From: Candidatus Limiplasma sp.
GTDB lineage: Bacteria; Bacillota; Clostridia; Christensenellales; Aristaeellaceae
Reading direction: 5' to 3'
Assembly: GCA_963675655.1 (NCBI GenBank)
Contig: OY776489.1
Location: 2,967,501 to 2,991,500 of the forward strand
Length of the DNA: 24,000 nt
In this document: piece by piece, positions 1-22,342 of the stretch
How the letters are laid out: the number at the start of each line of letters is the position of its first letter
Numbering within the stretch: position 1 is the stretch's first letter
Program-made: the position numbers and the translations under genes
Notes under the pieces: generated by a model
What the model saw: only the letters and a program-made list of their open reading frames with translations
Told to the model about the DNA's origin: nothing
Databases searched by the model: none

Positions 1-1251
1 CCACGAAAGCGACATCAGCGATACGATCGGGGTATTCTGCATCAAAAAGTTTACAATTAAAGAGAATGCGACAAAGGCAATACAAAGGGCACGCATCGTC
101 CAAACGGTTGTTTTTGGCTTCATTTTGGGCGCTATTACGCCCAGTAGATCGACGGAGATAACCGAGGAGGAGGAAAGCACCAACGCGGTTAACGTGGAAA
201 TACTGGCGGATAACAGCAGTACGACGAATAGTCCCAGCATTGCATCCGGAATGCCGACGACAGTCGTATCGGTTAGCATGGTCGGCATAATCTGATCCAT
301 TGCCATTTGCCCGCTCTTTACCAGCGCAGCCATCGTGGTGGTACCATCCGCAGAAGCAATTTTACTAAGCACAACACGCCCGAAGCTGCCGGCGAAGTAT
401 GCACCGCCCGCAACGATAAACGCAAAAACAGTCGAAATAACCGTTGCGCGGGTTACGCTTTTTTCATCCTTAATCGCAAAGAATTTATGAATCATCTGTG
501 GCATACCCAGTACGCCCACAGAGGTAAGAATTACGTTACTGAGCAGCCAAAGTTCTTTCCCTTTCGGCGGCATAAGCGTATTCATGTTCTGTCCGCCTAT
601 TTCTTCCGTACCCAGCAGATTCAGCGCTGTTGCAGTGCCCCCTGCAGCCTTTACAATATAAACAACAATGGCTGTGATGCCCACCAGCATAATCAGTCCT
701 TGAATAAAATCCGTAATCGCCGTGGCTTTGTATCCGCCCGCAAACAGATAAATGGAAGCAAGCAAGGCAATACCGATTACGCACCATGTATAATCAAAGC
801 CAAACGCTTTGCTGAACATATTGCCAAGTCCTTTATATACGCTTGCGCTATAAGGCAGCAGGAAGATGAAAATCATCAGGCTTGCTAATACCTTTAATGT
901 TTTGCTCTGGTAGCGCTTCTCAAAGAAGCTGGGCAGTGTGGCTACTTGTAGGCGTTCCCCCATGCGACGCGTTGGCCGCGCCAACAACGCCCACGCCAAT
1001 AGGCTGCCGATCAGCGCATTACCGATTCCCAGCCAGATAGCCGATAAACCGGCATTCCAGCCCATGGAACCTGCATAGCCAACGATGATAACGGCAGAAA
1101 AATAACTGGCCCCATAGCTGAGTGCGCTCATCCATGGGCCAACGCTTCTGCCTCCTAAGAGGAAGCCGCTTAATGTCAGGTTTTTTCGTGCTGTGAAGAA
1201 GATAACAACAATCAACATGATTGCATAAGCTACCAATACTACTAACTTCAT
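1..1251 (-). CDS. Sodium:solute symporter (SSF) family transporter; N-terminal 417 codons only, the C-terminus lies beyond the window edge
   Basis: Absent from the ORF track because it runs off the edge. Hand translation from the ATG at 1251-1249 stays open to position 1: MKLVVLVAYAIMLIVVIFFTARKNLTLSGFLLGGRSVGPWMSALSYGASYFSAVIIVGYAGSMGW... This shows the LGGRSxGP...AS..S signature of PutP/PanF-type SSF carriers and many hydrophobic helices. A GGAAGG SD-like element lies about 14 nt upstream of the ATG. Confidence 0.8.
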   Translation of the reverse strand, partial: MKLVVLVAYAIMLIVVIFFTARKNLTLSGFLLGGRSVGPWMSALSYGASYFSAVIIVGYAGSMGWNAGLSAIWLGIGNALIGSLLAWALLARPTRRMGERLQVATLPSFFEKRYQSKTLKVLASLMIFIFLLPYSASVYKGLGNMFSKAFGFDYTWCVIGIALLASIYLFAGGYKATAITDFIQGLIMLVGITAIVVYIVKAAGGTATALNLLGTEEIGGQNMNTLMPPKGKELWLLSNVILTSVGVLGMPQMIHKFFAIKDEKSVTRATVISTVFAFIVAGGAYFAGSFGRVVLSKIASADGTTTMAALVKSGQMAMDQIMPTMLTDTTVVGIPDAMLGLFVVLLLSASISTLTALVLSSSSVISVDLLGVIAPKMKPKTTVWTMRALCIAFVAFSLIVNFLMQNTPIVSLMSLSW

Positions 1252-1311
1252 CGTGTAATACCGCCTTCCATACTACTTTGTTTCTGTATGCACAGAAACA
1301 CTACAACTAGC

Positions 1312-6372: not shown

Positions 6373-8061
6373 TTAGTTAGGAAGCAAGCAGAAAGTATCG
6401 CATACGTCTCCGCTTTCATTATTCAGCTTCTCAATACAATAGATAAACGCTTCCACCGCTTCGGGATCGAACTGTGTCCCGCTGCAGCGTTCCAACTCAA
6501 TCAGCGCCTGTTTAAACGTCTTGGTTTTCTGATAAGGGCGAAGCGAGGTCATCGCGTCAAAAGAGTCGACAACAGCCAGAAGCCTGGCAAGATAATGAAT
6601 ATTCTCGCCTTTCAGCCCCAGCGGATACCCCTTGCCGTCATAACGCTCATGGTGCTGCAATATAATCGGCCGTATTTCTTCCATGGCTTCATTATTCTTA
6701 ATAATATCCACAGCGTATTGAGGGTGATTCTTTAAAATCTCCCATTCCTCATTGGTAAGGGGTTCGGTTTTATTCAATATCTCTTCCTTGATATTGATTT
6801 TACCAATATCATGCAGATAAGCGGAATAAACCAGTTTACGCTTTTCGTCAGGGCTGATATTCAGCTTATCCGCTAAAAGATTCGAATAGAATACGACGCG
6901 TTCTACATGCCGGTAGGTATACTTGTCCTTCGCGTTAATTACAGCGATGAGTGTTTTGATTTGGGTAATCACTTCCGGCGCAAAGTGGAATTCATCCAAA
7001 ATAGAGAAGTATAATTCTACGCGATTTTTGCACAGGAATTTTGCGCGGTAACAAGCATCATCTGCGCTCTTAATCAGCTCTGCGTCCGTTTTCACCTTGC
7101 TGGGGAAAGAGGATACACCTACGGACACCGTAAGATTGCCGCCTGGTAAATTTTCCTGCCCATCAAACGGATATTCCTGAACAGCACGGCGTAATTTTTC
7201 CGCCTCCGCAAAAGCTTGCTCCTCATCATAATAGCTGAGCAAGACGGCAAATTCTTCCCCTCCATATCGGGCGATGAACGTTTCTTTAGCGAAGGTTGCC
7301 TTCATAATCAAAGCGATAGACCGCAGTACATCGTCGCCTTTTTGATGGCCATACAGGTCATTGTAGTACTTGAAATTATCAATATCAATAAAAAGCAGAG
7401 AAACCGGAAAATGCTTTTCTTCCGCTTCGCGTATCTGACTTGAAAGGTACTCATAGAAATATCGATGGTTATACAGTTCGGTAAGCCCATCGATATTGGC
7501 GATTTCCTTCAAGTAATCGATGTGCTTTTTACGAATGTCGTCATAGTATCCCACGGTCCAGGAAATAATCAAAAATACGCAAGCCAGAATAATATCGCTT
7601 TCAAAGTAAGTATTGACTGCCCCTCTGGGAGCAAATATTAAATCTACTCCTAAAACTATAGTAGCGGAAAGACCTGCTACAGTCATACTTGTTTTTTGGC
7701 TGCATTCAATACTGGTAAATAAAATTACAAATATAAATAAAAATTTGTAGCTGCTTTCATAAGAGCCTGTCATAACCACAGAAACCAATGCAATTGACAT
7801 GGATACAACTGGATCAATTAATTTTCGCGTTACTGATTTATTCGCAATTTTCGATTGCAGATAAATCCACAGCATATAAATAACCAGAATGATCAGGAGA
7901 ATGGAAATTGTTAAGACCCCGTGCGTGACATAGGATAAAAAGCCGGGCATCTTTGAATAGTATTGCAAAAACGCGATCGCTGGGAAAGCAAGCGACGATA
8001 TTTTGATAATATTCAGTATTTGTTGAATTTGTTCTTTATTATCCTTTTCCAAGATCGTCAC
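6373..8061 (-). CDS. Polytopic membrane protein with a GGDEF (diguanylate cyclase) domain and an HD-GYP (c-di-GMP phosphodiesterase) domain
   Basis: About six predicted TM helices, then ...DGLTELYNHRYF...RYGGEEFAVLL (GGEEF at 7249-7263). These are followed by HDIGK (6798-6812) and HHERYDGKGYP (6622-6654). The start is uncertain: GTG at 8061 or TTG at 8052, with GGAAGG upstream, or the ATG at 7950. The 622-aa track ORF starting at 8241 is rejected because that stretch is agrD read in another frame. Confidence 0.85.
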   Translation of the reverse strand: MTILEKDNKEQIQQILNIIKISSLAFPAIAFLQYYSKMPGFLSYVTHGVLTISILLIILVIYMLWIYLQSKIANKSVTRKLIDPVVSMSIALVSVVMTGSYESSYKFLFIFVILFTSIECSQKTSMTVAGLSATIVLGVDLIFAPRGAVNTYFESDIILACVFLIISWTVGYYDDIRKKHIDYLKEIANIDGLTELYNHRYFYEYLSSQIREAEEKHFPVSLLFIDIDNFKYYNDLYGHQKGDDVLRSIALIMKATFAKETFIARYGGEEFAVLLSYYDEEQAFAEAEKLRRAVQEYPFDGQENLPGGNLTVSVGVSSFPSKVKTDAELIKSADDACYRAKFLCKNRVELYFSILDEFHFAPEVITQIKTLIAVINAKDKYTYRHVERVVFYSNLLADKLNISPDEKRKLVYSAYLHDIGKINIKEEILNKTEPLTNEEWEILKNHPQYAVDIIKNNEAMEEIRPIILQHHERYDGKGYPLGLKGENIHYLARLLAVVDSFDAMTSLRPYQKTKTFKQALIELERCSGTQFDPEAVEAFIYCIEKLNNESGDVCDTFCLLPN

Positions 8062-8079
8062 ATCGCCTTCCAAGATCGT

Positions 8080-8120
8080 GAATAGGTAAAGGAAGATGGG
8101 AGGCGACGCTATCGCCCCCC
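8080..8120 (-). terminator. GC-rich hairpin with a U-rich tail immediately after agrD (terminator or attenuator candidate)
   Basis: The minus strand reads GGGGGGCGA-TAGCG-TCGCCTCCC, a 9-bp stem with one G.U pair at 8098-8120, followed by ATCTTCCTTTACCTATTC. It lies between the agrD stop (8132) and the candidate starts of the GGDEF/HD-GYP gene. Confidence 0.5.
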
Positions 8121-8131
8121 ACTGCGTCTGC

Positions 8132-8254
8132 TTACTTGTTGCGCAGAGACGCGGGCTCCTGCGGCTGGTAGAAGAACCAGTAGCAGGCAGAGGAAGCGAC
8201 CAGCGCCGCAACAACGGTGCTGACAGCGGCGATAACGCCATAGAACTTCTTCAT
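8132..8254 (-). CDS. agrD: AgrD-type cyclic (thio)lactone autoinducing peptide precursor, 40 aa
   Basis: Too short for the ORF track; translated by hand codon by codon: MKKFYGVIAAVSTVVAALVASSACYWFFYQPQEPASLRNK*. The ATG overlaps the agrB stop (ATGA), and GGAAGGAGG lies 7 nt upstream. It has an amphipathic leader, a single Cys, a hydrophobic 5-residue CYWFF segment and a Pro/Glu-rich tail, which is the clostridial AgrD layout. Confidence 0.85.
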   Translation of the reverse strand: MKKFYGVIAAVSTVVAALVASSACYWFFYQPQEPASLRNK

Positions 8255-8898
8255 AGATGTGCCTCCTTCCTGAAGAATTTAGGTAAATCATTCAGCTTAT
8301 TGAGCAGAATGGCACCCAACGGTGTGAGCGTAAGGGATTGCCAAGCCGTACCCAATAAAAGGCTGGTCCCATAAGAATGAAATGCCGGGTACCGGCTTGC
8401 AAAATAGTAGAAAACAAGCTGCAAGGCAAAATACACAGACACAATAATTGTACTGCCTTTGCGCATGCGCTTGATTTTGTCTTTATTGGTTATCGGTTTA
8501 TTCGGTGAATCAATTGGTACATAGCGATAAATGATCCAGTACGTAAGCATATAGCAAATGATCATCACAATGAGTACAAGAACAGGATCGATAATCGTAG
8601 CTAATATACGCGATGCTAACGCCGCAACTGTACAGTAAATAACGCTGACCACTGTACAGAAATCAGCATCATATGCGTGTGCGCCTCCGCTGTATTTTCG
8701 AAAGATGCTAACCGCAAAACATACGATCATTGCTTCTACAGGCGCACCGACAATAAAACCAAAAATCAATGCAAGTATAATGGTAATTCCTATTTGGACA
8801 ATTGCCAATAAACCATAAGCTACAACCGCTTCGCGTTCCTCATCATATCCTAGAGAAACAGCAATTTTATTGGCCAGCCTCCTTACCATTTTCTCCAC
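8251..8898 (-). CDS. agrB: AgrB-family membrane endopeptidase (AgrD processing and cyclisation)
   Basis: 215-aa polytopic ORF with the AgrB signature FRKYSGGAHAYDADFCTVVS (conserved GG-H...C catalytic His/Cys pair). It sits immediately upstream of, and translationally coupled to, agrD. Confidence 0.85.
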   Translation of the reverse strand: MEKMVRRLANKIAVSLGYDEEREAVVAYGLLAIVQIGITIILALIFGFIVGAPVEAMIVCFAVSIFRKYSGGAHAYDADFCTVVSVIYCTVAALASRILATIIDPVLVLIVMIICYMLTYWIIYRYVPIDSPNKPITNKDKIKRMRKGSTIIVSVYFALQLVFYYFASRYPAFHSYGTSLLLGTAWQSLTLTPLGAILLNKLNDLPKFFRKEAHL

Positions 8899-9391
8899 TT
8901 TTTTCTACCTTCTTTTTATTGATTGCTTTAGAAATATAATATCCTGAGACTACAAAAATAGCCAAGAATATCGTTGAGGGTATCGCATAGAGGGCTTGTT
9001 CAAGCGGTTTTGCTGACTTGACAAGTAAATATGCCTGCTCCTTACCATACATCACATTAAGCAGTAAGGAATTAAGTATTTCTGAGACAGAATTAAATAC
9101 AAGAATGATAACTGCAGCAATTACCTCTCGAGGCATTTTTGATAATTCAATATGGTACATTCTTTGAAAACTGAATATCATCACAAATAATGATAAAACA
9201 GTATTAATCCCAAGCGTGATGGGTAAAAAACGGATTAAATATGTAATGACGATATAAAGTGAGCTGAGTAATAAATACTTTTTCTTGTCAACAGGGATCC
9301 CCACCAGAATATGCATAGCCCACGCTATTAAAAAACCTTCCGGAATACCCTTGAGTAAAAACATATGTAGAGTAACCGCAATGCTGTTCAT
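8867..9391 (-). CDS. Small polytopic membrane protein of unknown function (about 5 TM helices, Lys-rich C-terminal tail)
   Basis: 174-aa ORF with an ATG start and AGGAGG 8 nt upstream. Its 3' end overlaps the agrB start by 32 nt. I recognise no catalytic motif. Confidence 0.65.
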   Translation of the reverse strand: MNSIAVTLHMFLLKGIPEGFLIAWAMHILVGIPVDKKKYLLLSSLYIVITYLIRFLPITLGINTVLSLFVMIFSFQRMYHIELSKMPREVIAAVIILVFNSVSEILNSLLLNVMYGKEQAYLLVKSAKPLEQALYAIPSTIFLAIFVVSGYYISKAINKKKVEKSGENGKEAGQ

Positions 9392-9411
9392 CGTGCTTTC
9401 CTCCTAAAATA

Positions 9412-9969
9412 TTATTGCTTTTGTCGGTCCGTAAAACGTAAATTTACCGCACGAATCATTGAGTAAAGCATAATACATACGAACAAGTGTATTAGTACAT
9501 CCCCCGCACTCAGAATACAGTAGCCATAGTCGATAAAATCTGTTAAGAATTTCAGCTTGGTTTCCGGTCCGCCTAAAGTGTGCATCGTGTCTGCTGTGGA
9601 AACCATCTCCGGCGTAACATACCCTGTCAGATAAGATAGTGATGGGAAAACAGGCATTTGTCCATTGTTTTGCGCAATGGCCAGCTTGTTGAGCAATGTA
9701 CCGGCGCCAATACATACAGAACCTGCAATCGCTGGTTTATACAATTTAAAAACAAATATTGCAAATAAAAATGAAAGTATAACAGCAGGTTCGGTGTACG
9801 GTACCAGTTGCACAAACATATAATTCCTAAGAAAAATACTTGCCTGAAAAACGACCAGCACGCACTGCATGATTAACACCGGATAAAAGGTCCATGTTTT
9901 GAAGAGATATTTCAGTTTGTAATGCTTTAACTTTGCGATTATGCATACCAGAATGATTTCGACAACCAT
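9412..9969 (-). CDS. Polytopic membrane protein, DUF5317-like
   Basis: I place the start at the ATG at 9969 (AGGAGG 8 nt upstream) rather than the track's GTG at 9978. Blocks ...LLNKLAIAQNNGQMPVFP... and ...TKLKFLTDFIDYGYCILSAGDVLIHL... match my recollection of the DUF5317 family. The family assignment is from memory and is not verified. Confidence 0.6.
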   Translation of the reverse strand: MVVEIILVCIIAKLKHYKLKYLFKTWTFYPVLIMQCVLVVFQASIFLRNYMFVQLVPYTEPAVILSFLFAIFVFKLYKPAIAGSVCIGAGTLLNKLAIAQNNGQMPVFPSLSYLTGYVTPEMVSTADTMHTLGGPETKLKFLTDFIDYGYCILSAGDVLIHLFVCIMLYSMIRAVNLRFTDRQKQ

Positions 9970-10128: not shown

Positions 10129-10137
10129 ATTATACCA
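10129..10137 (-). promoter_or_regulatory. Extended -10 element (TGGTATAAT), a candidate promoter for the agr-type operon
   Basis: The minus strand reads ...GGGATAATATGGTATAATAATACC..., about 160 nt upstream of the first gene, with no good -35. A second, weaker candidate (TTGTTT-17 nt-TGgTATGCT) lies nearer, at about 10008-10039. Confidence 0.35.
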
Positions 10138-10208: not shown

Positions 10209-10244
10209 GAAAAAATCCATCATACCAAATTATGATATGATGGA
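10209..10244 (-). terminator. Rho-independent terminator ending the polysaccharide operon
   Basis: The minus strand reads TCCATCATA-TCATAATTTGG-TATGATGGA (9-bp perfect stem, 10216-10244) followed directly by TTTTTTCTGTTTTT. It lies 32 nt after the stop at 10276. Confidence 0.85.
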
Positions 10245-10275: not shown

Positions 10276-12543
10276 TCATTTTAACACGCTACCCAATGCT
10301 GCGAATTGATAAGGATCGTCCTGATACTTCCTCTCCATTTCGCTCAGGTAGATATCCAATGCAGCTGCTGTATAGATGCTATTATCAGACATGTGCATAA
10401 CCAGTACTGCACCGCTCTTTGTATACTTTTTCAGGTTGCTTGCCAGTTTATCTGCGCTGGAGGCTTTATAATCCTGACTTGAATAACTGCCGGATACTGA
10501 GAACAGATAGCCACAATCAAACACCTTTGTTAAGCCGCTTTTACTTACAGCCAGCGTTGGCGGGCGGAACAAACGTACCAATGCAGGTTGTCCACCCACG
10601 GATACATCCCCGATAATGGCTTGAAGTGCGTCGTAGGAGTTAATCAATTCGCCTTCCAGCTCATCCAATTGTTCGTTGCTAAGTTCTGTAAACTTCTTTC
10701 CTGTGCCGACGTCGTTTGAAAGCTGGAAATGCGAATACGTATGGCTTGCTACATTGTGCCCCGCAATCGCAATGGAACGCAGCAAATTTGGATTATACTG
10801 CACATTCTTTGCCACGACAAAGAATGTGGCCTTAGCGTTATGAGCTTTCAATACATCCAGTATCTTTGTGATGGTTTCATCCGTTCCCCAGTCATCAAAG
10901 GTTAAAAAGACCATATTCTGATCGTTGGGTACAAGCCCGGTTTTATCCAGGCGCTTAATCTCATCCTTCGTAAACCCCGGCAGGAAATTGGACGAACTGA
11001 CCCAATCTACGCCGATATAGCGTGTTGCAATCGCCGTCATCACATCGCCGGTAAGCTGCCCCGGATATATTTTATCCTTTACCGCAGAGAGAATAGAACT
11101 ATCCGCCAAAGGGTACTGATACGTATATTCACTGTTGTTAGCAATCGCCGTAAGGGATTTCAGGCTATAGATATTACGGTTTTTCGCAATCAGACCGATC
11201 AGTTCACCTAGCAACTGATTGCTTTTTTGGTACTGGTTCATCTGAAAATGAATGATTTCGCCCCGCTGTAACATACCTTGATTTTCCGGCAGCAGGTCTT
11301 CCAGTATCGCTTCCGCATCCGTTGCGCGAATATCATTGGTACGTACGGCGTTTACCATCGAGGATGCAAGCATATAACCGCCTGCACCGCAAGCGCGTTT
11401 GAGCAAACTGTTCGCGTTGCCATACACAGGCCGTACCGCCATATCATCCGTGTAAGTATATAAAGTACGTATAGTTTCTTCGGTTTTCATGATCTGCAGC
11501 AGCATTGCCTCGGCATTTGAATAAAGAGAAGGCTGTATAGCGATACCCAGACTTTGTCCCGCGTCTAAAATCTGCTGTATTTCATCTGTATAGCGGGTTG
11601 CTTCATCCAACGTAACAAAGAAGGTTCCGGTACCTTTTACGGTTTTTAATGTTTGCAAAACACCGCTTAACTCCGCTTGATTGCCAAGTCCGGAAAAGGT
11701 GAACGCAACGGCTCTTTCTGTTGTGTACACCCTTATCATCGCATCAGCTGAATCATCGTTTTCCTGCAAAAGTGCTTCAGAACTCGCGCCTAAATCGGTT
11801 GAGGCTAATGCAGAACATATTGCAGAAACCGCTGTGGATGCGCCGGCTTCTTTTGCAGTAAGCTCTACACAGAGAATAGAACCTCTAACTAGGCCATCCA
11901 CAGTTTTTTTAGCTATTGTACTTGTTGGAATATCGGCAAGCGTAATGGTTTTTGTCGGTACAACCACCGTATCCATAGAGCTGGCGTATGCAGCGGCTAA
12001 AAGCTCGTCATTTGCCGATTGCGGTGATAAGACCTGCGAAGGCCATAGCCCCACCTCGTTTTGTATTGTACCGCCTGAGCGGACAAAATCAGACACAATG
12101 CTCTCGACCGATGCGGATGTTACCGTAGATCCGTTTCCTTCGTACACAACGCCGACTACATAACCGGCATTGGCAATCATCCCAAGGCTCTCCTTATACT
12201 CGGATGCATCTTGCCCAGAGATGAAGAAAGAGGCGATAACATCGTTGCTTTCCATGGCATTGATCAGATTTTGTGTGGTTTGGGAATCGCTTAAACCTTT
12301 AAAAACCAGTTCAACCTTTTGCGACGTATCGTCACTTGCGGTTGTTCTTAGTAAAGCGATATCATCCTCGCCACGGTTTTGGTAATTCGTGACCGCTTCA
12401 TTGATGCGAATAATGGTTTGCTCTGATTGAGAAACGGGTACGATCGCACGCTGATCATCCGATCGGTACATTTTTACCGCTAAAAAGCAGCCGGCGATTA
12501 CCAGGAGAAAGAATACGGTATGCCGTAATTGTTTTTTCCACAT
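10276..12543 (-). CDS. Secreted or lipid-anchored triple NodB-module protein; only the C-terminal CE4 polysaccharide deacetylase domain is intact (paralog B)
   Basis: The start is taken at the ATG at 12543 (MWKKQLRHTVFFLLVIAGC...), which aligns with the paralog's N-terminus and has AGGAGG 13 nt upstream. There is a possible lipobox, IAGC. The C-terminal CE4 motifs are intact: LTFDDWG (10888-10902), SHTYSH (10729-10743), LFRPP and LVMHMSD. Two upstream NodB-like modules have VFKGL and TFSGL in place of TFDDG and lack the His-His motif. Confidence 0.85.
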   Translation of the reverse strand: MWKKQLRHTVFFLLVIAGCFLAVKMYRSDDQRAIVPVSQSEQTIIRINEAVTNYQNRGEDDIALLRTTASDDTSQKVELVFKGLSDSQTTQNLINAMESNDVIASFFISGQDASEYKESLGMIANAGYVVGVVYEGNGSTVTSASVESIVSDFVRSGGTIQNEVGLWPSQVLSPQSANDELLAAAYASSMDTVVVPTKTITLADIPTSTIAKKTVDGLVRGSILCVELTAKEAGASTAVSAICSALASTDLGASSEALLQENDDSADAMIRVYTTERAVAFTFSGLGNQAELSGVLQTLKTVKGTGTFFVTLDEATRYTDEIQQILDAGQSLGIAIQPSLYSNAEAMLLQIMKTEETIRTLYTYTDDMAVRPVYGNANSLLKRACGAGGYMLASSMVNAVRTNDIRATDAEAILEDLLPENQGMLQRGEIIHFQMNQYQKSNQLLGELIGLIAKNRNIYSLKSLTAIANNSEYTYQYPLADSSILSAVKDKIYPGQLTGDVMTAIATRYIGVDWVSSSNFLPGFTKDEIKRLDKTGLVPNDQNMVFLTFDDWGTDETITKILDVLKAHNAKATFFVVAKNVQYNPNLLRSIAIAGHNVASHTYSHFQLSNDVGTGKKFTELSNEQLDELEGELINSYDALQAIIGDVSVGGQPALVRLFRPPTLAVSKSGLTKVFDCGYLFSVSGSYSSQDYKASSADKLASNLKKYTKSGAVLVMHMSDNSIYTAAALDIYLSEMERKYQDDPYQFAALGSVLK

Positions 12544-12676
12544 GGTGCAATTCATTCCTCCTGTTTTCATATGAAATGCGTCGTTATAGACTTTACATGG
12601 TGTTGATTTAATAAAGCGTAATGGGAAAAGCATGGTTGAGTAGGATCACTATTAGTATAGCTGTTTTTACCAGAAA

Positions 12677-14953
12677 CTACAACGCATCATTCAAGCCAAT
12701 AAACTGATAAGGCTCTTCAGCGTTTTCCGCTTCCATCACCGTCAGGTATAAATCCAGCGCTTCTGCGGTATACTGACTGGTGTCCGACATATGCATTAAA
12801 AGAATCGCGCCGCTTTTTGTATTCTTCTCCAAACTGGCGGCTAATTTCTCTGCGCTGACAGCATCATAGTCGTGGCTGGAATAGCTACCGGATATGGAGA
12901 AAGTAAAACCACAATCCAACACCGCTTCTATCCCTCTTTTACTTACCGCTAAAGTCGGCGGCCGAAACAACAGAGATAGCGATGGTTTATCCCCAGACTT
13001 TACATCACCGACAATATGCTGTAATACATTATAAGATGTCGTCAATTCCGCCTGCAATTCCGTCACCTGCTGCGAGGTTAAATCAGTATACTTTAGCTTG
13101 CTACTCTTTGTGTCCACATTTGCCAATGGTGTATGTAAATGGGAATGGCATCCTATTGTATGGCCCTCAACTGCAATGGCACGAAGTAAGTTGGGATTAT
13201 ACTTCACTTTCCCGGTAAGGATAAAGAAGGTTGCTTTTGCGTGATGCGCCTTAAGCACATCCAGTATAGCCGTTATCGTTTGGTCTGTGCCCCAGTCGTC
13301 AAACGTAAGAAATACCCTGTTAAAATTATTCACGATGAGTCCCGTTTTATCAAGCCGTTTAATCTCATCCTTGGTAAAACCGGGTAAATACTGCGAAACC
13401 GATACCCAATCCGTGCCAATGTATCTTAACTCAATCGAAAGCTCGGTATCACCGGTCATTTGCCCTGGATAGATTTTATCCAATACTTCGGGCAGAATAT
13501 CGCTGTCTGCGAGGGGATACTGATATACGTAATCCGTGTTATTCACGATCGCCAAGATGGGCTTTATGCTATAAATATTCCGCTCTGTAGCAATGAGCAG
13601 TACCAATTGGCCAAGCAATTCATCACTTTTTTGATACTGATTCATGAGGAAATGGACAATTTCTCCTCGCTGCAACACACCGGCGGCTTTTGGAAGAATA
13701 CTTTCGACAATCGCTTGAGCATCGGTAGCGCGGGTATCATCGCTACGTACTGCATTTACCATAGCAGAAACCAGCGTGAAGCCTCCTGCACCACAGGCTT
13801 GCTTAAGCATCTGGGTAGCATAGCCGTAAATCGTACGCACAGGCAACGCATCTGTATAGTGAAAAATGCAAGACAGGTTTTCCTGTATGCTTAGCATTTC
13901 TTCCAGCAGCGTAGCGGCATCTTTGCTTTCTGTGGTTTGTACTGCAATCCCCAAACTATGCCCATACAACAATACTTGTGATATTTCTTCCGGGTGATGG
14001 TTAATGTCATCCTGCGATACAAAGAACGTCGCTTTCCCGCTCACTGCATCCAATGCTTCTAAAACGCTTTGCAATTCAGCATCATTGCCCAAACCATAAA
14101 AGGTAAATGCTACTGCCCGTTCTGTGGTATATACCTGCGTAATCGGCTCATTTGCCTGTGTCTCTCTTGCTAATAGTTCTTTGGTATAAGCCTGCAGATC
14201 TGTATTCGCCAGTGTCAGGCAGAAAGCGGAAAAACCGTTTGTATTCCAGTTGGCATCTGTCTGGTTAGGCAACTCGATACATACAATTTCTTCGCGTTTC
14301 AGGGCCGCAACTTGCGTTTCTGCATCCTTTTGGGTGTCTATTGCATCCAATTGCAGCGTTGTACTTGGTATAACAATCGTATCCATATTGCAGGCAAACG
14401 CGATTGTTGCCAATGCTGTATCTTTAGTTGACTGTGCCATGATTTTTGCAGGCCAAATGCCGGTTAGCTGCTGTATTTGCTCTCCGGTCTGCACCAGCTG
14501 GGTAATCAGGCCCTCAGCTGTTTCATCATCCGTCACCGTACCTTGATCGATCGCAATGCCGATAGAATACCCAGATTCTACAATTTGCGATAAACTTGCG
14601 GGATATGCCTCAACATCACTCGCCGATACAAAAAAAGATGCGGTTAAACCATTTTGCGCAATGATGCTTAACATACTTCGCGTCGTGCGAATATCGCTTA
14701 ATCCCCGCATGACGATTTCGGCTTTCTCGCGGATGTTCTCTCCGGCTTTTTTCCGTAATATTGCCGTATCGCCAATACCATGCTGATGATATCGCTCAAT
14801 CGCCGTGCTAATTTGCTCGGTCAGCTGTTGCTCCGGTGAAGGTGTCGCCTCAGTATCGCGCTGCTCTGATGGGAACACTTCCGCCGCATATAAGCTGCCC
14901 GCAATCGCCAGCATCACGATAACAGCGAAAATAAGCTGCTTTTTCCACGCCAA
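12677..14953 (-). CDS. Secreted triple NodB-module protein; only the C-terminal CE4 polysaccharide deacetylase domain is intact (paralog A)
   Basis: 758-aa ORF with a TTG start and AAGGGAG 7 nt upstream, one nt after the preceding stop. It has an N-terminal signal/anchor. The C-terminal domain has LTFDDWG (13292-13306), CHSHLH, LFRPP and LLMHMSD. The two upstream modules are degenerate (IVMRGL, FTFYGL). By eye it is about 55-70% identical to the 10276-12543 product. Confidence 0.85.
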   Translation of the reverse strand: MAWKKQLIFAVIVMLAIAGSLYAAEVFPSEQRDTEATPSPEQQLTEQISTAIERYHQHGIGDTAILRKKAGENIREKAEIVMRGLSDIRTTRSMLSIIAQNGLTASFFVSASDVEAYPASLSQIVESGYSIGIAIDQGTVTDDETAEGLITQLVQTGEQIQQLTGIWPAKIMAQSTKDTALATIAFACNMDTIVIPSTTLQLDAIDTQKDAETQVAALKREEIVCIELPNQTDANWNTNGFSAFCLTLANTDLQAYTKELLARETQANEPITQVYTTERAVAFTFYGLGNDAELQSVLEALDAVSGKATFFVSQDDINHHPEEISQVLLYGHSLGIAVQTTESKDAATLLEEMLSIQENLSCIFHYTDALPVRTIYGYATQMLKQACGAGGFTLVSAMVNAVRSDDTRATDAQAIVESILPKAAGVLQRGEIVHFLMNQYQKSDELLGQLVLLIATERNIYSIKPILAIVNNTDYVYQYPLADSDILPEVLDKIYPGQMTGDTELSIELRYIGTDWVSVSQYLPGFTKDEIKRLDKTGLIVNNFNRVFLTFDDWGTDQTITAILDVLKAHHAKATFFILTGKVKYNPNLLRAIAVEGHTIGCHSHLHTPLANVDTKSSKLKYTDLTSQQVTELQAELTTSYNVLQHIVGDVKSGDKPSLSLLFRPPTLAVSKRGIEAVLDCGFTFSISGSYSSHDYDAVSAEKLAASLEKNTKSGAILLMHMSDTSQYTAEALDLYLTVMEAENAEEPYQFIGLNDAL

Positions 14954-14954
14954 G

Positions 14955-15980
14955 TTAATATTCTCCCTTTATATCAGGCGTAATAAGCTCACTTTTCCAG
15001 TCGTTTACATCGTTGCCGCCCAATCTGAAGAAATCAAACGAAGAAAAACCGTTTTGCACGCACGTGTCGCGCCATATCGCGAGCGTTTCCGCATCTGCAT
15101 ACCAAACTTCGTGCGTTTCCCCATCAAAATCATAAATTGCGCACAACGCGCCGCTGTCGGCATCCCGTATGGGCATTGCATCTGCTTCGCACAGGTTCTC
15201 TTCGGCTTGCTGCTGTGTTAGCGAAGTGATCTCATCCCCGTGCCAATCAAATCCCCCGGTTGCAAACGCCATACTTACATTGGGCAAAAGCGACTGGTAA
15301 TAAGCACAGGTCTCATCTAAAAAGGCAATGTCAGCTTTGGGCCCCGGGCCGCTGTGATACCCAAACAGGTTATAACACATTACACTGTATTCCGGTCCCT
15401 GCGGTAAATCAACATAGTTAGGAGCATTCCACGGCAGTACAATACGTAATTGAATACCATCGCGCTCGCAAACTGACCATGCCTGTTGAATAAAGGTTGC
15501 GTATTGTTGCCAAAGTTCCGTATCTGTGCGTATATTCTCATAATCCAGTTCAATCCCAGTAAGACTATATCGATCAATCAGGCTTATGAGTGCTTCCAGA
15601 TGTAACGCCATAGATTCTTCATCTGCAAAGAGACGGCGAAGCAAGTCGGCATTTTTATTATCATAAACGTTGGTCTCGATTTCGATATCATTTACCACAG
15701 ATAGGTAAACATCCGTACCGGTATCCATGCAGTCTTTTTGAAGCGCGCGCAGCATGGTTTCGGTTTCATCCAGCATCAACAAATCGTCATTCGCATCGAA
15801 GATACACGCAAAAGCGATCACTTTATCCAGCTTATCCGTAAGTGAATTCAATTCCAGTATAGAATCGTCATACTCCCAATAAGGCATCCATGCGCCGTAT
15901 TGATAATTCTCCGCTATTGCGCCGGAGTACACCCCCGCCAGCAGTATAAGAACTGCAAATAGGCAAAGTTTCTTCTTCAC
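14955..15980 (-). CDS. Secreted GH18-like (chitinase-fold) glycoside hydrolase
   Basis: GTG start with AAGGAGG 7 nt upstream. The signal peptide is MKKKLCLFAVLILLAGVYSGAIA. LTGIELDYE aligns with the GH18 DGxDxDxE block and retains the D-x-E catalytic pair. The overall pattern resembles YaaH/YdhD-type GH18 proteins. Confidence 0.65.
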   Translation of the reverse strand: MKKKLCLFAVLILLAGVYSGAIAENYQYGAWMPYWEYDDSILELNSLTDKLDKVIAFACIFDANDDLLMLDETETMLRALQKDCMDTGTDVYLSVVNDIEIETNVYDNKNADLLRRLFADEESMALHLEALISLIDRYSLTGIELDYENIRTDTELWQQYATFIQQAWSVCERDGIQLRIVLPWNAPNYVDLPQGPEYSVMCYNLFGYHSGPGPKADIAFLDETCAYYQSLLPNVSMAFATGGFDWHGDEITSLTQQQAEENLCEADAMPIRDADSGALCAIYDFDGETHEVWYADAETLAIWRDTCVQNGFSSFDFFRLGGNDVNDWKSELITPDIKGEY

Positions 15981-16063
15981 GCATGATCCTCCTTGGACGT
16001 GTATATTTCGCCATCACAAGACTATTGGTTCAAACGCCATGCATATTGATCGTATAATGCAGA

Positions 16064-18007
16064 TTAGAAGTGATCCACAAAGAACTGGGTAATCGACTTA
16101 AACCAACCGGTAACAATGGAGTTGATCGTTCTTCTTTCTGCGAGGTTATAGGAGTATAACACTTTATTCGCATCCTGCGCGTCATAGATGACAATATCTT
16201 TAAAGACCGCATCGTAGACATCGTCGAAAATATAGCGCTGTGTATATTGCTCTTCCGTATTTTCATACACTTTCGCTGCCAGGGATATCGCACCTAACTG
16301 CGTACCGGATACCTTTAGCTGGCTTACGATTGGTTTATCATCGACCCATACACTCAATCGGCTGCCTACCAAACGAATCCGCAGTTTACGCTCTTCCCGT
16401 GTGGAAGTATCGTTAACCGGATAATATGGGGTTCCGCCATCCTCCAGTGTAAGTACAGGGGTTAAATACAATTCCTGCAACTTTCGCGTTGCTTCCGCGA
16501 TCCGCTGCGGATCAGTATCGTATTGAATGATGGCCTGCTGAAGCGCAATTAAACCATTATGCTCATCTTCCTGCGTAGAAATATAGGGACCGCCGTCAAA
16601 TTCAAACAGGTTTTGGAAGAACAACTGCTCTTCGTCGTCGCCGACATCCCAAATCTCAAAATTATTATCTTCCAGGCGAATTTCGATACCATGATCCCAT
16701 TCGCGATCCGTACGAAGGCATATACTTTGCCGACCAACTAGATTACCCCGTACATAAACTGTCATATCCAAATCGGAGAACAGCTGTGTATTCATTGTTA
16801 TCTGGCCACGTCCTGCCGGTTCGGAGGTGACAATGATTTGGTTTCCTTTATACTCTGCTACGCCTTCATCCGAATACCAATGCGAAGCTTCATCTTCATC
16901 ACCGGTTACAAATTGTAGGGTATCGCCCGTATCGTCCCATATCCGCATCAGCATATGATTGGTTGAAAAATAGCTTTGCACTTGCAAACGTGTAAGGTCA
17001 TAAATGGATGAATCCAGTGTGTTTAAACAGGATCCTTCTCGATTATAGTTCATAGTGTACAAGTTCGTAATCCATTTCCGGTTCGCCTCGCTGGCAATTG
17101 CATCCGTACCGAAAGCGCCGGTATTGGCGTGCATTAGCACATACATTTCAGGTACATAGCCAATGGCATTGGTATACTCGGTACTCATCCCTTCATAATC
17201 TGCTTGAATCCGTTTTTCCAGTTCTTCGACGCTTTCAACCCGCAGCCGATCCTCATCACGGATAAAATCCATCAAATAATGGTTGTAGTCGCGCCACAGG
17301 TATTGACGGACGTCCAGAAACTCTTTTGCGTTCAACTGATCAAAGAAGTTATTATAACGGTCAAACACATTGATATAGGACAGTCGATAACCATTGCTGC
17401 CGAGTTCCCAATATGCGTTATTAATCTGCGTCTTAATATCGTCGGCCGTTATGTAATCGCTCTCTTCATCATCCAGATTATCAGCATACGTACACTCGGT
17501 CGCGCTGTAACCATGTTTTTTCAGCGTGTCAATCGCATAATCGGTTGTTTTTTTAATGCCGTCTTCAAAAAAGAGGAAGAGCGATTTTTCCGGCAGTGTA
17601 CTGTACCGCAAGTAAAAATCAGCAATATCCTGTTGTGTAATCGTTACATAACCGGATGCATGCAAAGCTTCAATCTGTTCTTTAAATGTTTCCAGATTAA
17701 CAATTTTGCTTTCCAGGCTCGTAGACGTAGTTAATCCCGGATAAGATATGGCGATAAAGCGCCGGTCTGCTCCCGCGTCCGATTGTACGGAGGGGCCGTC
17801 GCTATTGAAACTGGTATTGCTTTTACTGGTAGGGCCGCCGCTTGCCGATGTTTGAATGGAATGTACAATAGAATAGACGCCAACACCAACCGCAACGACA
17901 ATTAAAACAATCTCAATAATAGATCGCAGTAATTTTTTGCGGTTCGAGCGCTGCAAGCGTGCCTTGGATGCTCTAAAATCTTTATTGGGGTCATTTGATT
18001 CGGTCAT
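16064..18007 (-). CDS. Single-pass membrane protein with a degenerate PgaB/IcaB-like NodB module and a C-terminal beta-sandwich (lectin/LamG-like) region
   Basis: 647-aa ORF with an ATG start and GGAAGGAG 9 nt upstream. A TM helix lies at about residues 28-50. LFLFFEDGIKKTTDYAIDTLKKHGYSATE aligns with the LTFDDG...ATFF block of CE4, but the His-His motif is absent (ELGSNGYRLSY). The beta-strand-rich C-terminal half has no motif I can name; calling it lectin-like is a guess. Confidence 0.6.
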   Translation of the reverse strand: MTESNDPNKDFRASKARLQRSNRKKLLRSIIEIVLIVVAVGVGVYSIVHSIQTSASGGPTSKSNTSFNSDGPSVQSDAGADRRFIAISYPGLTTSTSLESKIVNLETFKEQIEALHASGYVTITQQDIADFYLRYSTLPEKSLFLFFEDGIKKTTDYAIDTLKKHGYSATECTYADNLDDEESDYITADDIKTQINNAYWELGSNGYRLSYINVFDRYNNFFDQLNAKEFLDVRQYLWRDYNHYLMDFIRDEDRLRVESVEELEKRIQADYEGMSTEYTNAIGYVPEMYVLMHANTGAFGTDAIASEANRKWITNLYTMNYNREGSCLNTLDSSIYDLTRLQVQSYFSTNHMLMRIWDDTGDTLQFVTGDEDEASHWYSDEGVAEYKGNQIIVTSEPAGRGQITMNTQLFSDLDMTVYVRGNLVGRQSICLRTDREWDHGIEIRLEDNNFEIWDVGDDEEQLFFQNLFEFDGGPYISTQEDEHNGLIALQQAIIQYDTDPQRIAEATRKLQELYLTPVLTLEDGGTPYYPVNDTSTREERKLRIRLVGSRLSVWVDDKPIVSQLKVSGTQLGAISLAAKVYENTEEQYTQRYIFDDVYDAVFKDIVIYDAQDANKVLYSYNLAERRTINSIVTGWFKSITQFFVDHF

Positions 18008-18124
18008 CTGTATCTGCTTCTCCTTCCGGATGGCAATGATTGGTCTTTATCAGTTCGGTTGATACTAAGTATAGGCAAGTATAATCTGTATGCAGTAATC
18101 CTGCTTTACCATAACGATTAACCA

Positions 18125-19909
18125 TTATGTTCCGCTGGCAGTCTTTTGTTTTTTCTTTTTCTTCTTGTTGCCGCGTGTACCCCAATCCGATACCCAGAAG
18201 GTGAACCAGGCATACGGCATTTGCCATAGTAAGATGGCTTCATAGTAGATTACAAACCATAAACCATAAATCCAAAGATTGCTCTTTTTGAGTCGAAGCT
18301 GTGCCAGGCTCATCAGCATGGCCATCATCAAGATACCCAACAAGAATGTCGTTGGGAAGATATGCTTTGTTATTGGAACGATGATCAGGTTGTACACCAT
18401 AATTAACGGCGCAATCAACGGTATTAATAGCCCCATATAAAACGACATAGACATCAACGGTTCTTTACGCCACATAAAAGAGCCGGCTTTCAGGCTTTCA
18501 CGCAGCCAAGAACGCTTCCAACGCATCTGCTGCTTCAAAAATACCTTTTGGCTCTTGGGAACCAGCGTAGAACAGATAGCCGTATCCTGATAGGATGTAC
18601 GGTAGTTTTTCACAACAAAGTTCGTCAAGCTGCGGTCATCACCAAAGGTTGCTTTCCGTCCAAGGAAGGTTTGGTTAACCCAGGGCTCCAATACTTCTTT
18701 TACGGCAGACAGCCGATAGCAGGACAGCGGACCGGACAGGCAGGTAACAGCATTGAAATAGGCTTCTGCTGCTTTAATAATACGGAAACTGATGTAATAA
18801 CGTACGCATTGCATCTTTGTCAGGTGGTTAGTATACGTGTTTACAACGTCTGTACGGCCGGATACACCACCCATTTTTGGATCAAACATCGGTTGTACGA
18901 GGTTGCGAATGGCATCCGGCTCCAAAAAGCTATCTGAATCCACAAAACCAATTAATTCCGTAGTTGCGTTTTTAATACCGAGTGCCATCGCCTCGCGTTT
19001 GCCCTGATTATGCTTTTGAATGAAGACGCGAATTCTGTTTTTAGTTTGGAATCGTTCATCCAAATTCCACAGCTTTGTTATGGTATCTTTTATCACTTCC
19101 ACTGAACGATCCGAAGAGCCGTCGTCTACAACAATGATCTCAAGCTTATCCAGAGGATAATCCTGATCGATACAGCTCATAATCGTACGGGCGATATATT
19201 CCTCTTCGTTAAAGCAGGGAATAACAATGGTAATGGATGGCGTATAGTTTGGATCCACCGGCACAGGTTTATACATGGAACCAAATAAATAACGCGATAA
19301 CAGGAACGATGCCGTCGCGATGGAGTATGCGTATAAAATGCTGTTTTGGTTGAAGTACATTACACTTTCCGTGCGCATCAGTACAATAACCAAGGTAACT
19401 AAAAACAAGAAGAAGATGGATATCGAAGAAAGCGCCGTATCTTTCTTTCTGCGGCGGGATATATACAACGGTTGATCAAACTGTACGGCAAAACTCTGTT
19501 TCTCAGGTGAATAGCGGACTACTTTACCTTTCACACGGTAATGATCTTCCGTACCTTCGTGCAATACGCCCGGTAAAAGCGAAAAGTCCAGCGTAAGGGA
19601 CTCGTCCATTTCTAATGCTTTGGCAAGTGCTGTTCGCGGCAACTTCATCTGTATGCCGGTTTGGGAAATATCCATACAGCGTGCAGGAAAACGCCGCCGC
19701 CCGTTTGAAGTAACAAGCACTTTAAAATTGGCAAAATAACGCTGCCCCGCATAATTTGCATACTGCGGTTTAGATTTATCCTGATGCAGATTATTACGCC
19801 GGTCCTCGGGCGCACGAATACTTGCCGGGTCGGGAACGTGAGACAGCAGCCTGCGATCCCGGCGCGGTTGAAGCATTACGTCTGTAAGGGTTGAATATTT
19901 CTTAGCCAT
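18125..19909 (-). CDS. Processive family-2 glycosyltransferase (HAS/NodC/chitin-synthase-like) with an N-terminal PilZ-like domain
   Basis: 594-aa ORF. Residues about 55-150 follow the PilZ beta-barrel pattern, with DISQTG (the D/NxSxxG motif, 19655-19672). Two TM helices follow. The GT2 core has VIPCFNEE, VVDDGSSD, FVDSDS, GDDRSLTNF (18623-18643) and QQMRWKRSW (QxxRW, 18518-18532). It ends with three or more C-terminal TM helices and a Lys-rich tail. Confidence 0.85.
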   Translation of the reverse strand: MAKKYSTLTDVMLQPRRDRRLLSHVPDPASIRAPEDRRNNLHQDKSKPQYANYAGQRYFANFKVLVTSNGRRRFPARCMDISQTGIQMKLPRTALAKALEMDESLTLDFSLLPGVLHEGTEDHYRVKGKVVRYSPEKQSFAVQFDQPLYISRRRKKDTALSSISIFFLFLVTLVIVLMRTESVMYFNQNSILYAYSIATASFLLSRYLFGSMYKPVPVDPNYTPSITIVIPCFNEEEYIARTIMSCIDQDYPLDKLEIIVVDDGSSDRSVEVIKDTITKLWNLDERFQTKNRIRVFIQKHNQGKREAMALGIKNATTELIGFVDSDSFLEPDAIRNLVQPMFDPKMGGVSGRTDVVNTYTNHLTKMQCVRYYISFRIIKAAEAYFNAVTCLSGPLSCYRLSAVKEVLEPWVNQTFLGRKATFGDDRSLTNFVVKNYRTSYQDTAICSTLVPKSQKVFLKQQMRWKRSWLRESLKAGSFMWRKEPLMSMSFYMGLLIPLIAPLIMVYNLIIVPITKHIFPTTFLLGILMMAMLMSLAQLRLKKSNLWIYGLWFVIYYEAILLWQMPYAWFTFWVSDWGTRGNKKKKKKQKTASGT

Positions 19910-19940
19910 GACTTAAAACCTCTTCGCTCGTTGCGTGCGG

Positions 19941-21611: not shown

Positions 21612-22318
21612 GACAATACTTCCCCCGACTCCTCATGGGTCGCAGAGGGGTCTGCAACGCGGTTCAGCGACATGTGCGAATTATCAATCTGTTGCAGCAC
21701 ATCGATAGAAGCGTCCAATTCTCTTTCCATACCGCGGAATTGCTCGGCAAGGTCTTTTTTAAACTGCAAAGCGCTGTAGTAAGCTGCTCGGCAAGCAGAA
21801 ACCAGTTGCCTGCGCTGTTCATTGGCCTGCTGCATCATCCGCTCACTGTCCATATTAGCCCGGGCAACAATTTGATCTGCCCGTTGCACAGCTTGCGCCA
21901 CTACATCTTCAGCACTCTGTTTTTCCAGATAAGCAATTTGCTCGTTCATATGGTCGATCCGGTTTTGCAGGCGTGCCACCTCTGCGTTCAGCTGAGTGAT
22001 ATGCTCGCTTTGCGCAGTATTTTCTCCGCTGGCTTGGGTAAGCTCATCACCAATCGCAGCTAGCTTATGCTGTTGATTGGTGATGATGCTTTCCTGCTGC
22101 TTTGTTTTTTCGCGCAGGGAAACAAGCATCGCTTCCTGGCTTTTATTTGTATTAAGCAGTTGCTGGTATTGCGTTTCTAACTTTAACTGCTTGCTACGTT
22201 CAATTTCTGCTTCATCCGCCAGATCGTTCAAGTGGCGGTCAACCTCGTCAACCAGATAATATTTTCGCCGCTTTACTGTAAATCCGTAATCTGCGTAATC
22301 ATCAATCGTCTTGTTCAT
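21608..22318 (-). CDS. DivIVA-domain coiled-coil protein
   Basis: The N-terminus ...YGFTVKRRKYYLVDEVDRHLNDLADE fits the DivIVA N-terminal pattern (F..x.RGY..xEVDxfLd). The remainder is a long Q/E/A-rich heptad-like coiled coil. Confidence 0.7.
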   Translation of the reverse strand: MNKTIDDYADYGFTVKRRKYYLVDEVDRHLNDLADEAEIERSKQLKLETQYQQLLNTNKSQEAMLVSLREKTKQQESIITNQQHKLAAIGDELTQASGENTAQSEHITQLNAEVARLQNRIDHMNEQIAYLEKQSAEDVVAQAVQRADQIVARANMDSERMMQQANEQRRQLVSACRAAYYSALQFKKDLAEQFRGMERELDASIDVLQQIDNSHMSLNRVADPSATHEESGEVLS

Positions 22319-22342
22319 CTGGTGGATCGCCTCCTTGTTTGA

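Follow-up and report, generated by a model that had tools for sequence, protein, structure and literature searches.

The DNA analyzed here (the window) is a stretch of 24,000 nucleotides from Candidatus Limiplasma sp. (assembly GCA_963675655.1, contig OY776489.1, positions 2,967,501 to 2,991,500). Its minus strand carries a cassette in which genes for homologs of AgrB and AgrD, the processing peptidase and the precursor of autoinducing peptides (AIPs), are followed by the gene for a membrane-bound enzyme of cyclic di-GMP (c-di-GMP) turnover, which we propose as the receptor of the encoded peptide. An earlier note on this DNA had given the order of the cassette as DUF5317, a 174-aa membrane protein (mem174), agrB, agrD, and a six-transmembrane (6TM) protein with GGDEF and HD-GYP domains, and had reported that no histidine kinase or LytTR regulator is present in the 24 kb. 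Domain searches bore out the gene order (Table 1), and a scan of all open reading frames (ORFs) of at least 100 aa and of the partial gene at the left edge returned zero HisKA, HATPase, HATPase_c_5, Response_reg, or LytTR domains. Since the genes are as stated and the scanned ORFs of the window include no kinase, receiver, or LytTR protein, we consider that observation confirmed. The genes are tightly packed: agrB and the 3' end of mem174 share 32 nt, and the start of agrD overlaps the stop of agrB.

Table 1. Features of the agrBD-c-di-GMP cassette and its surroundings (positions in the window)
Feature	Position	Strand	Basis and remarks
GT2/chitin-synthase-like glycosyltransferase with N-terminal PilZ domain	18125..19909	-	PF00535, PF03142, PF07238
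Intrinsic terminator of the polysaccharide-deacetylase gene	10216..10244	-	12-bp stem, then TTTTTT; inverted repeat; 5' limit of the cassette transcription unit
Candidate extended -10 element, TGGTATAAT	10129..10137	-	Upstream of DUF5317; sequence reading only
DUF5317 membrane protein, first cassette gene	9412..9969	-	PF17248, E 2.6e-23; alternative start 9978
mem174, 174-aa protein with about four TM helices	8867..9391	-	Uncharacterized family
AgrB, membrane peptidase/cyclase for AgrD	8251..8898	-	PF04647, E 5.4e-38, full-length match
AgrD precursor, 40 aa	8132..8254	-	TIGR04223, 51.2 bits vs cutoff 19
Intercistronic hairpin	8096..8122	-	12 pairs, 7 of them G-C, weak T tail; in the 8062-8131 gap
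c-di-GMP enzyme, 562 aa, hydrophobic N terminus of 186 residues	6373..8061	-	PF00990 and PF13487
6TM sensor domain, aa 1-186, proposed AIP receptor module	7504..8061	-	AlphaFold2, HMMER, hypervariability
GGDEF domain, aa 188-342	7036..7500	-	PF00990, E 1.7e-42; GGEEF intact, no RxxD
HD-GYP domain, aa 370-534	6460..6954	-	PF13487 (HD_5), E 1e-38; HD and HHERYDGKGYP

The peptide genes have the sequence features of an AIP-biosynthesis pair. His74 and Cys81 of AgrB (GGAH74AYDADFC81, as read from the translation) are seven residues apart, like the catalytic pair of the Staphylococcus aureus enzyme, which is numbered H77/C84. The AgrD precursor, MKKFYGVIAAVSTVVAALVASSA-CYWFF-YQPQEPASLRNK, combines a hydrophobic leader, a cysteine with four further ring residues (CYWFF), and a charged, proline-containing tail. 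In an alignment of about 55 AgrD homologs, the leader (MKK...A[ST]SA) and the tail (YQPEEPxSLR) are conserved, the pattern C-x4-YQPxEP is present, and variation is confined to the four residues after the cysteine, which read YWFF, IIFF, YFFM, YIFI, FFFF, LWFT, or FWGH, among others. The leader also resembles a lipoprotein signal peptide cleaved before the cysteine, and one Clostridium perfringens AgrD is listed in UniRef as "Putative lipoprotein." Clostridial peptides of the AgrD type can be devoid of an N-terminal tail and can rearrange into lactams (PMC8251862), and a synthetic five-residue ring peptide, "5R," has been employed as the signal in C. perfringens studies (PMC7492741).

The orthologs of the c-di-GMP enzyme begin at the codon equivalent to TTG 8052, GTG 8061, three codons earlier, being also possible; a 622-aa ORF from 8241 is a spurious open frame that runs over agrD and the hairpin, the orthologs starting later. 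Both catalytic signatures are intact, as the earlier note had stated (RYGGEEF in the GGDEF domain; HDIGK and HHERYDGKGYP in the HD-GYP domain), and the metal- and GTP-binding residues D226, D228, N234, D243, and R265 are conserved in the family alignment (A4). The same note was right that the RxxD inhibitory site (I-site) is absent, since AKET fills the canonical position, nine to six residues before GGEEF, but wrong in placing KETF there; some relatives keep the motif, as RDGD (P0023) or RDQD (P0038). Among 28 representatives, H417, D418, H446, H470, H471, E472, G476, G478, Y479, and P480 of the HD-GYP domain are invariant but the GGDEF motif is degenerate in about 7, which makes hydrolysis look like the indispensable output and suggests that the GGDEF domain may have a catalytic role in some lineages and a regulatory one in others.

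The N-terminal domain, predicted earlier to have roughly six TM segments, forms six helices in an AlphaFold2 model of the TM part (pLDDT 90.8, pTM 0.85; the full-length model has a pLDDT of 86.8), and TM6 is one continuous helix, residues 151 to 188, that enters the GGDEF domain. The counts of Lys plus Arg fit an N-in/C-in topology, with the N terminus, loop 2, and the segment after TM6 inside and loops 1, 3, and 5 outside. K106, D140, and D156, the sole residues of the TM domain that are invariant in the family, are situated at the outer ends of TM4, TM5, and TM6, respectively. When 1.8 billion representative sequences were searched exhaustively with the TM profile (HMMER), 137 members (one per 50%-identity cluster) were recovered. 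Among the 66 long members, GGDEF domains occur in 39, HD-GYP domains in about 30, HisKA plus HATPase_c (often with PAS) in 26, and a hybrid kinase in 1. On two metagenome contigs the sensor is split (L001, 1304-2967, and L029, 62-1311; P0002 and P0003), a TM-only ORF ending just past TM6 and the next ORF beginning within GGDEF; an assembly error is one possible cause, a genuine deletion or split variant another.

The association of this domain with agrD was evaluated using the TM domain alone as the probe, so that agrD had no part in the retrieval of loci, and neighborhoods were called by iterative hidden Markov model annotation of all ORFs. Scanning one genome per GTDB species yielded 13 loci, mostly from Candidatus Limiplasma (the closest 96% identical) but also from metagenome-assembled genomes (MAGs) labeled "Oscillospiraceae" and "Clostridiaceae," from Anaerofustis, and from a Eubacteriaceae MAG; a metagenome scan with a seven-sequence probe added 40 further contigs. 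In 47 of the 47 GGDEF/HD-GYP sensor loci for which 200 nt or more of upstream sequence was available (representing 39 distinct sensors), agrD is the gene directly upstream, the adjacency persists down to 26% TM-domain identity, and AgrB and mem174 were found wherever the contig extends far enough. The sensor family is also attached, in databases, to the names of C. butyricum, C. botulinum, C. beijerinckii, C. saccharoperbutylacetonicum, C. chromiireducens, and C. taeniosporum, and it is carried by Paeniclostridium sordellii/Paraclostridium and Acetobacterium; the cassette itself, in five- or four-gene order, was confirmed in C. beijerinckii (L067), C. botulinum (L068), and Paeniclostridium (L065). 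Conservation of the agrD-GGDEF/HD-GYP adjacency across Clostridia, a test set beforehand, was thus found in every informative locus as well as in cultured species.

Two variants of the cassette deserve mention. The Paeniclostridium/Paraclostridium loci (L065 and L066, 1100-6686) have no DUF5317 gene, are located directly downstream of spoIIGA-sigE-sigG, and encode a divergent AgrD with the ring CTMIF and the tail FEPEMP. The Anaerofustis sp. locus (L014, 4000-9174) carries two tandem mem174 paralogs and an additional 1100-aa GGDEF/HD-GYP gene immediately upstream of DUF5317.

The relatives in which the 6TM domain is fused to a PAS-HisKA-HATPase kinase share the DUF5317/mem174-AgrB-AgrD cassette in L017, L019, L039, and L040. 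The order in L017 is DUF5317-mem174-AgrB-AgrD-6TM-PAS-kinase, that of the three others is similar, and in Alkaliphilus metalliredigens the kinase gene is about 1 kb from a mem174-AgrB-AgrD trio. The contig type represented by L039 and L040 has a pair of agrBD cassettes whose rings differ; a GGDEF/HD-GYP sensor comes after one of them and a PAS-kinase sensor after the other, and a third mem174-kinase pair is present as well. Interchangeable outputs on one sensor domain that is kept after agrD are, as far as gene arrangement can tell, what a dedicated peptide receptor module is expected to look like.

Further evidence comes from the way in which the cassettes diverge. When L035 (ring CFYFM) is compared with L043 (CYWYF), the DNA is 55 to 73% identical from mem174 through agrB and agrD to the 6TM domain, but identity jumps to about 90% precisely where GGDEF starts and stays at 80 to 93% downstream; at the protein level, the catalytic parts are about 93 to 94% identical, the TM windows 36 to 70%, AgrB 56%, and mem174 48%. 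Similarly, L036 (CIWGH) and L046 (CFWLI) are 39 to 63% identical over agrB/agrD and 61 to 72% over the first TM helices, then 81 to 93% over the remainder of the sensor gene, with flanks that are about 96% identical. In the specificity groups of staphylococcal agr, the hypervariable block stops within agrC, at the boundary between sensor and kinase, and the identity break at the 6TM/GGDEF junction is, by its position, the signature of such an agr-type hypervariable region. Among close pairs with different rings, the TM domain is 7 to 24 points below the catalytic part in 10 of 11, and such an excess was seen in none of the 5 same-ring pairs, whose TM and catalytic identities are about equal (96/95, 81/81, 82/82, 81/78, and 83/82). 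The ratio of TM to catalytic divergence is 1.79 for different-ring versus 1.20 for same-ring pairs in the outer half of the bundle, and 1.44 versus 1.02 in the inner half.

Based on these results, we suggest that the locus is probably a self-contained peptide quorum-sensing module, the receptor of which is the c-di-GMP enzyme instead of a two-component system. Direct sensing of the AIP by this enzyme, the central proposal of the earlier note, thereby gains support of a comparative kind, from the adjacency, the kinase-fused 6TM domains, the hypervariable block, and the ring-linked divergence of the TM domain. By homology, AgrB would cut AgrD after the fifth ring residue and close a Cys-linked five-residue macrocycle, CYWFF, and the leader would be removed just before the cysteine so that the peptide is released. 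The comparative evidence suggests that the outer half of the 6TM domain would recognize the extracellular peptide, perhaps jointly with mem174, and the AlphaFold2 model that TM6 would carry the signal to the GGDEF/HD-GYP part, shifting the balance between c-di-GMP synthesis and hydrolysis. The altered c-di-GMP pool could then act on effectors, a candidate being the PilZ-bearing exopolysaccharide synthase about 10 kb upstream.

Several observations weigh against this interpretation, the support for which is purely comparative and drawn from sequence and models. In a partial Mantel test, ring distance correlates with TM distance given the catalytic part (r = 0.35, p = 0.0002; reverse, r = -0.09), but AgrB, mem174, and DUF5317 yield similar values, so that the statistic is not specific to the sensor, and all same-ring pairs belong to one clade. 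Because of these two limits, we place the main weight on the identity profiles mapped to the junction and also rank the comparison of same-ring with different-ring pairs above the Mantel statistic. Homology of the TM domain to the AgrC sensor, with which the earlier note had suggested comparing it, is rejected at the sequence level: hhalign of a 24-sequence 6TM profile against the sensor of S. aureus AgrC-I gives a probability of 0.3%, the AgrC query being one sequence and no profile, the C-terminal (kinase) half of which matched PDB 6e52 and 4bxi. We propose that the 6TM domain probably works like AgrC without belonging to its sensor family. Sequence searches for solved homologs of the 6TM profile, as of mem174 and DUF5317, returned none, and the best fold match of the 6TM model is a protein from outside agr systems, ImcA of Pseudomonas aeruginosa (Foldseek E 0.12, probability 0.99, TM-score 0.51 to 0.56). 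A regulator that would close an autoinduction loop, whether a transcription factor, a riboswitch, or a repeat, was not found in the window: neither the window nor the leader of the cassette contains a c-di-GMP riboswitch or other known RNA that reaches its gathering score, the single subthreshold match of the leader being a weak "Ocean-V" on the plus strand (23 bits versus a gathering score of 75), and no LytTR-type direct repeats were found upstream of the cassette. The operon of C. perfringens has been treated as receptor-less, with VirS reported as the peptide receptor (PMC7492741). Finally, mem174 also adjoins 6TM-kinase genes that have no agrBD; the co-varying mem174 could be the real peptide-binding subunit, and the sensor could read mem174 instead of the peptide.

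This last point leads to the alternative that fares best, although we judge it unlikely: that the 6TM domain senses production, reading a species within the membrane (the AgrD precursor or leader, an AgrB-AgrD complex, or mem174), so that c-di-GMP would report peptide synthesis or export instead of extracellular peptide. PilS, which senses pilin within the membrane, provides an analogy, and the Pfam family PF25323 (6TM_PilS) is matched weakly by 9 of the 66 long relatives (best E 1.7e-8), whereas the window protein has no match at E up to 0.1. The presence of mem174 next to the sensor even where agrBD is missing, and its place within the hypervariable block, would fit this idea, as would the fold match, since the activity of ImcA and its interaction with IsmP depend on its TM domain and on this partner membrane protein (PMC10904736). 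A sensor of the precursor would, however, face a leader and a tail that are highly conserved, whereas it is the ring that is hypervariable, and the excess divergence of the TM domain tracks ring changes and is stronger in the outer than in the inner half of the bundle.

It is likewise improbable, in our opinion, that a VirS- or AgrC-type kinase encoded outside the window senses the peptide while the GGDEF/HD-GYP protein answers another membrane or envelope cue and is kept in the operon because this couples its amount, or c-di-GMP control of agr expression, to the production of peptide. VirS is a precedent for such a kinase, and our kinase scan spans the 24-kb window. Yet co-expression explains neither the identity break at the TM/GGDEF junction, nor the kinase-fused 6TM proteins in the same slot after agrD, nor a TM divergence that exceeds catalytic divergence according to whether the rings differ, and the VirS paper itself contains an unexplained larger peptide-binding band of about 75 kDa (PMC7492741). 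A purely historical origin of the adjacency, as part of a mobile or conserved block in which peptide and enzyme are functionally uncoupled, is very improbable: the flanks of the cassette do differ by genus, as if the unit had been moved or retained as a block, but cassettes whose sensors range in identity from 96% to as little as 26% share one gene order across Christensenellales-like MAGs, Clostridium sensu stricto, Peptostreptococcaceae, Eubacteriaceae, and Acetobacterium, the genes overlap or are tightly spaced with a hairpin at a conserved position, and paralogous cassettes that share a contig (L039, L040) each retain their own sensor.

The mem174 protein is a candidate co-receptor or peptide-maturation factor. 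It has no match in Pfam, NCBIfam, or PDB, and Pfam is blank for all 37 members of the family, the alignment of which shows G61 and E104 to be invariant and P17, R54, L56, P57, and I58 to be nearly so. A relationship of mem174 to the TM domain of the sensor or to AgrC was considered and rejected (hhalign probability below 1% for each). Genes for mem174 are next to agrBD-free 6TM-kinases in L016 (1287-1757), L019 (1878-2366, 4421-4945, and 6923-7402), L039 (4517-4915), L040 (3253-3720), and L051 (4509-4970). Because of these pairs, we consider that mem174 tracks the sensor rather than the peptide genes, and the pairs themselves may be eavesdropping receptors.

The DUF5317 protein is encoded in most but not all cassettes, with the gene order kept in L003 to L014 and elsewhere, and its ATG at 9969 agrees with the starts of the orthologs (MVVEII...). 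Its invariant residues are N97, N104, G106, M108, S115, T118, G119, H133, D147, D150, S157, G159, and D160. The likeness of the AgrD leader to a lipoprotein signal peptide, with cleavage just ahead of the cysteine, led us to consider DUF5317 as a possible LspA-like leader peptidase; this idea is unsupported, the sole match covering 11 residues (NGQMPVFPSLS versus GDTVPLFPSLN; hhalign probability 3.6%), and we retain it as a lead only.

A strong stem-loop directly follows the agrD stop in all of the approximately 40 cassettes (L003 to L069). The stem-loop sequences are unrelated and most are without a U-tract, and the 111-nt region after agrD folds with free energies of about -17 to -50 kcal/mol across cassettes. 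We propose that this hairpin is probably a leaky terminator or a 3' stabilizer that would let agrD RNA exceed sensor RNA. At the other end of the transcription unit, the candidate extended -10 element was not returned by a promoter consensus scan, which requires a -35 element.

Upstream of the cassette, an exopolysaccharide-type cluster (10276-23401, minus strand) contains four polysaccharide-deacetylase ORFs, a GH18-like ORF, the PilZ-GT2 gene, a GDSL plus deacetylase ORF, and a DivIVA-like ORF. Its synteny with the cassette was found only in the closest relative, L003. The PilZ domain of the glycosyltransferase has the motifs RRFPAR (RxxxR-like) and DISQTG; this protein is a plausible local c-di-GMP effector, possibly a matrix synthase. 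Two ORFs of the window have no Pfam match, one of 352 aa (22343-23401, minus strand) and one of 193 aa (307-888, plus strand); the latter runs opposite to a partial sodium:solute symporter gene (1-1272, minus strand) and is possibly not a genuine gene.

Beyond this locus, we lean slightly toward the view that Clostridia and their relatives possess a second class of AIP receptor, unrelated to AgrC and made of the 6TM domain with mem174, with a swappable c-di-GMP-enzyme or HisKA-kinase output that possibly extends to orphan sporulation kinases. According to this view, the "orphan" agrBD loci of C. perfringens, C. botulinum, C. beijerinckii, C. butyricum, and Paeniclostridium would have their receptor right after agrD, and quorum state would be passed directly to c-di-GMP, with no two-component system in between. 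The question of what senses the peptides of the receptor-less clostridial agrBD loci dates back to about 2009, and reviews continue to describe the downstream pathway as unknown, for example for Agr1 of C. difficile (PMC11210211) and for C. botulinum (PMC9229411). The 6TM-GGDEF/HD-GYP proteins provide a concrete candidate receptor for this problem, one that is conserved, present in genetically tractable species, and marked by an evolutionary pattern that is usually confined to peptides and their receptors. If confirmed, it would be the first receptor of a peptide pheromone to double as a c-di-GMP enzyme, and it would tie quorum sensing directly to decisions on biofilm, motility, toxin, and sporulation in Gram-positive anaerobes. 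The kinase-output paralogs would then be candidates for peptide-controlled sporulation kinases, and gut commensals such as Candidatus Limiplasma would fall into specificity groups set by their hypervariable rings and sensor domains. Contigs of the L039/L040 type offer a natural system in which to compare specificity and output.

The conversion of a quorum signal into c-di-GMP turnover has its nearest conceptual parallels in Gram-negative bacteria. RpfR of Burkholderia (PAS-GGDEF-EAL) is at once the receptor of the Burkholderia diffusible signal factor (BDSF) and a c-di-GMP enzyme, in one polypeptide, and in the RpfC/RpfG system of Xanthomonas the diffusible signal factor (DSF) reaches an HD-GYP protein through a phosphorelay. 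RpfR and RpfC sense fatty acids, RpfR with a cytoplasmic PAS domain, whereas the module proposed here would sense a ribosomal cyclic peptide with a membrane 6TM domain in a Gram-positive bacterium. ImcA (PA1851, PDB 8wcn) resembles the window protein in having a six-helix membrane domain fused directly to GGDEF; it differs in having no HD-GYP domain, no agr context, and the iron sensor IsmP as its regulator, and the identity is 14 to 15%. As for the "MASE3 domain-containing" PAS histidine kinases of Clostridia (NF047874), the kinase relative P0021 scores 574 bits (cutoff 560) and P0058 falls below, at 495; the window protein gave no match to NF047874 and none to PF25323 at E up to 0.1, and no link to AgrD is described for those families.

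The agrBDCA system of S. aureus shares with the window AgrB and AgrD homologs, a macrocycle of Cys plus four residues, and the place of the receptor gene (in the window, the proposed one) right after agrD, and with the cassette family a hypervariable block that runs from agrB over agrD into the membrane sensor and stops at the start of the cytoplasmic signaling domain. The window differs in having no HPK10 kinase and no LytTR protein, in a six-helix sensor that is dissimilar to AgrC, in its predicted output of c-di-GMP turnover, in the DUF5317 and mem174 genes that precede agrB, and in that no autoinduction regulator is evident.

Another known system to compare is the Agr-like locus of C. perfringens. 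Co-transcription of CPE1563-CPE1562-agrB-agrD was shown experimentally (PMC2706048), and the gene after agrD is, by position, CPE1560, which appears in that work merely as a landmark. We found no paper that discusses this fifth gene, and no open-access full text that links agrD to a neighboring GGDEF/HD-GYP gene, an earlier mention elsewhere remaining possible. On a C. perfringens-type scaffold (L069, 3290-6886), the order is DUF5317, a 153-aa protein, AgrB, AgrD, and a 563-aa GGDEF plus HD-GYP protein. The AgrD is exactly that of C. perfringens (P0312), the 153-aa protein is a member of the mem174 family (hhalign probability 99.95%), and the 563-aa protein is 48% identical to the window sensor over its full length, with an N terminus that matches the 6TM profile at an hhalign probability of 100%. 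Because VirS is already reported as a receptor in this species, two receptors are possible there, and the virulence circuit of C. perfringens would, if our proposal is correct, gain the second one. The Agr-like locus of C. perfringens is thus orthologous to the cassette of the window, with the ring CLWFT in place of CYWFF.

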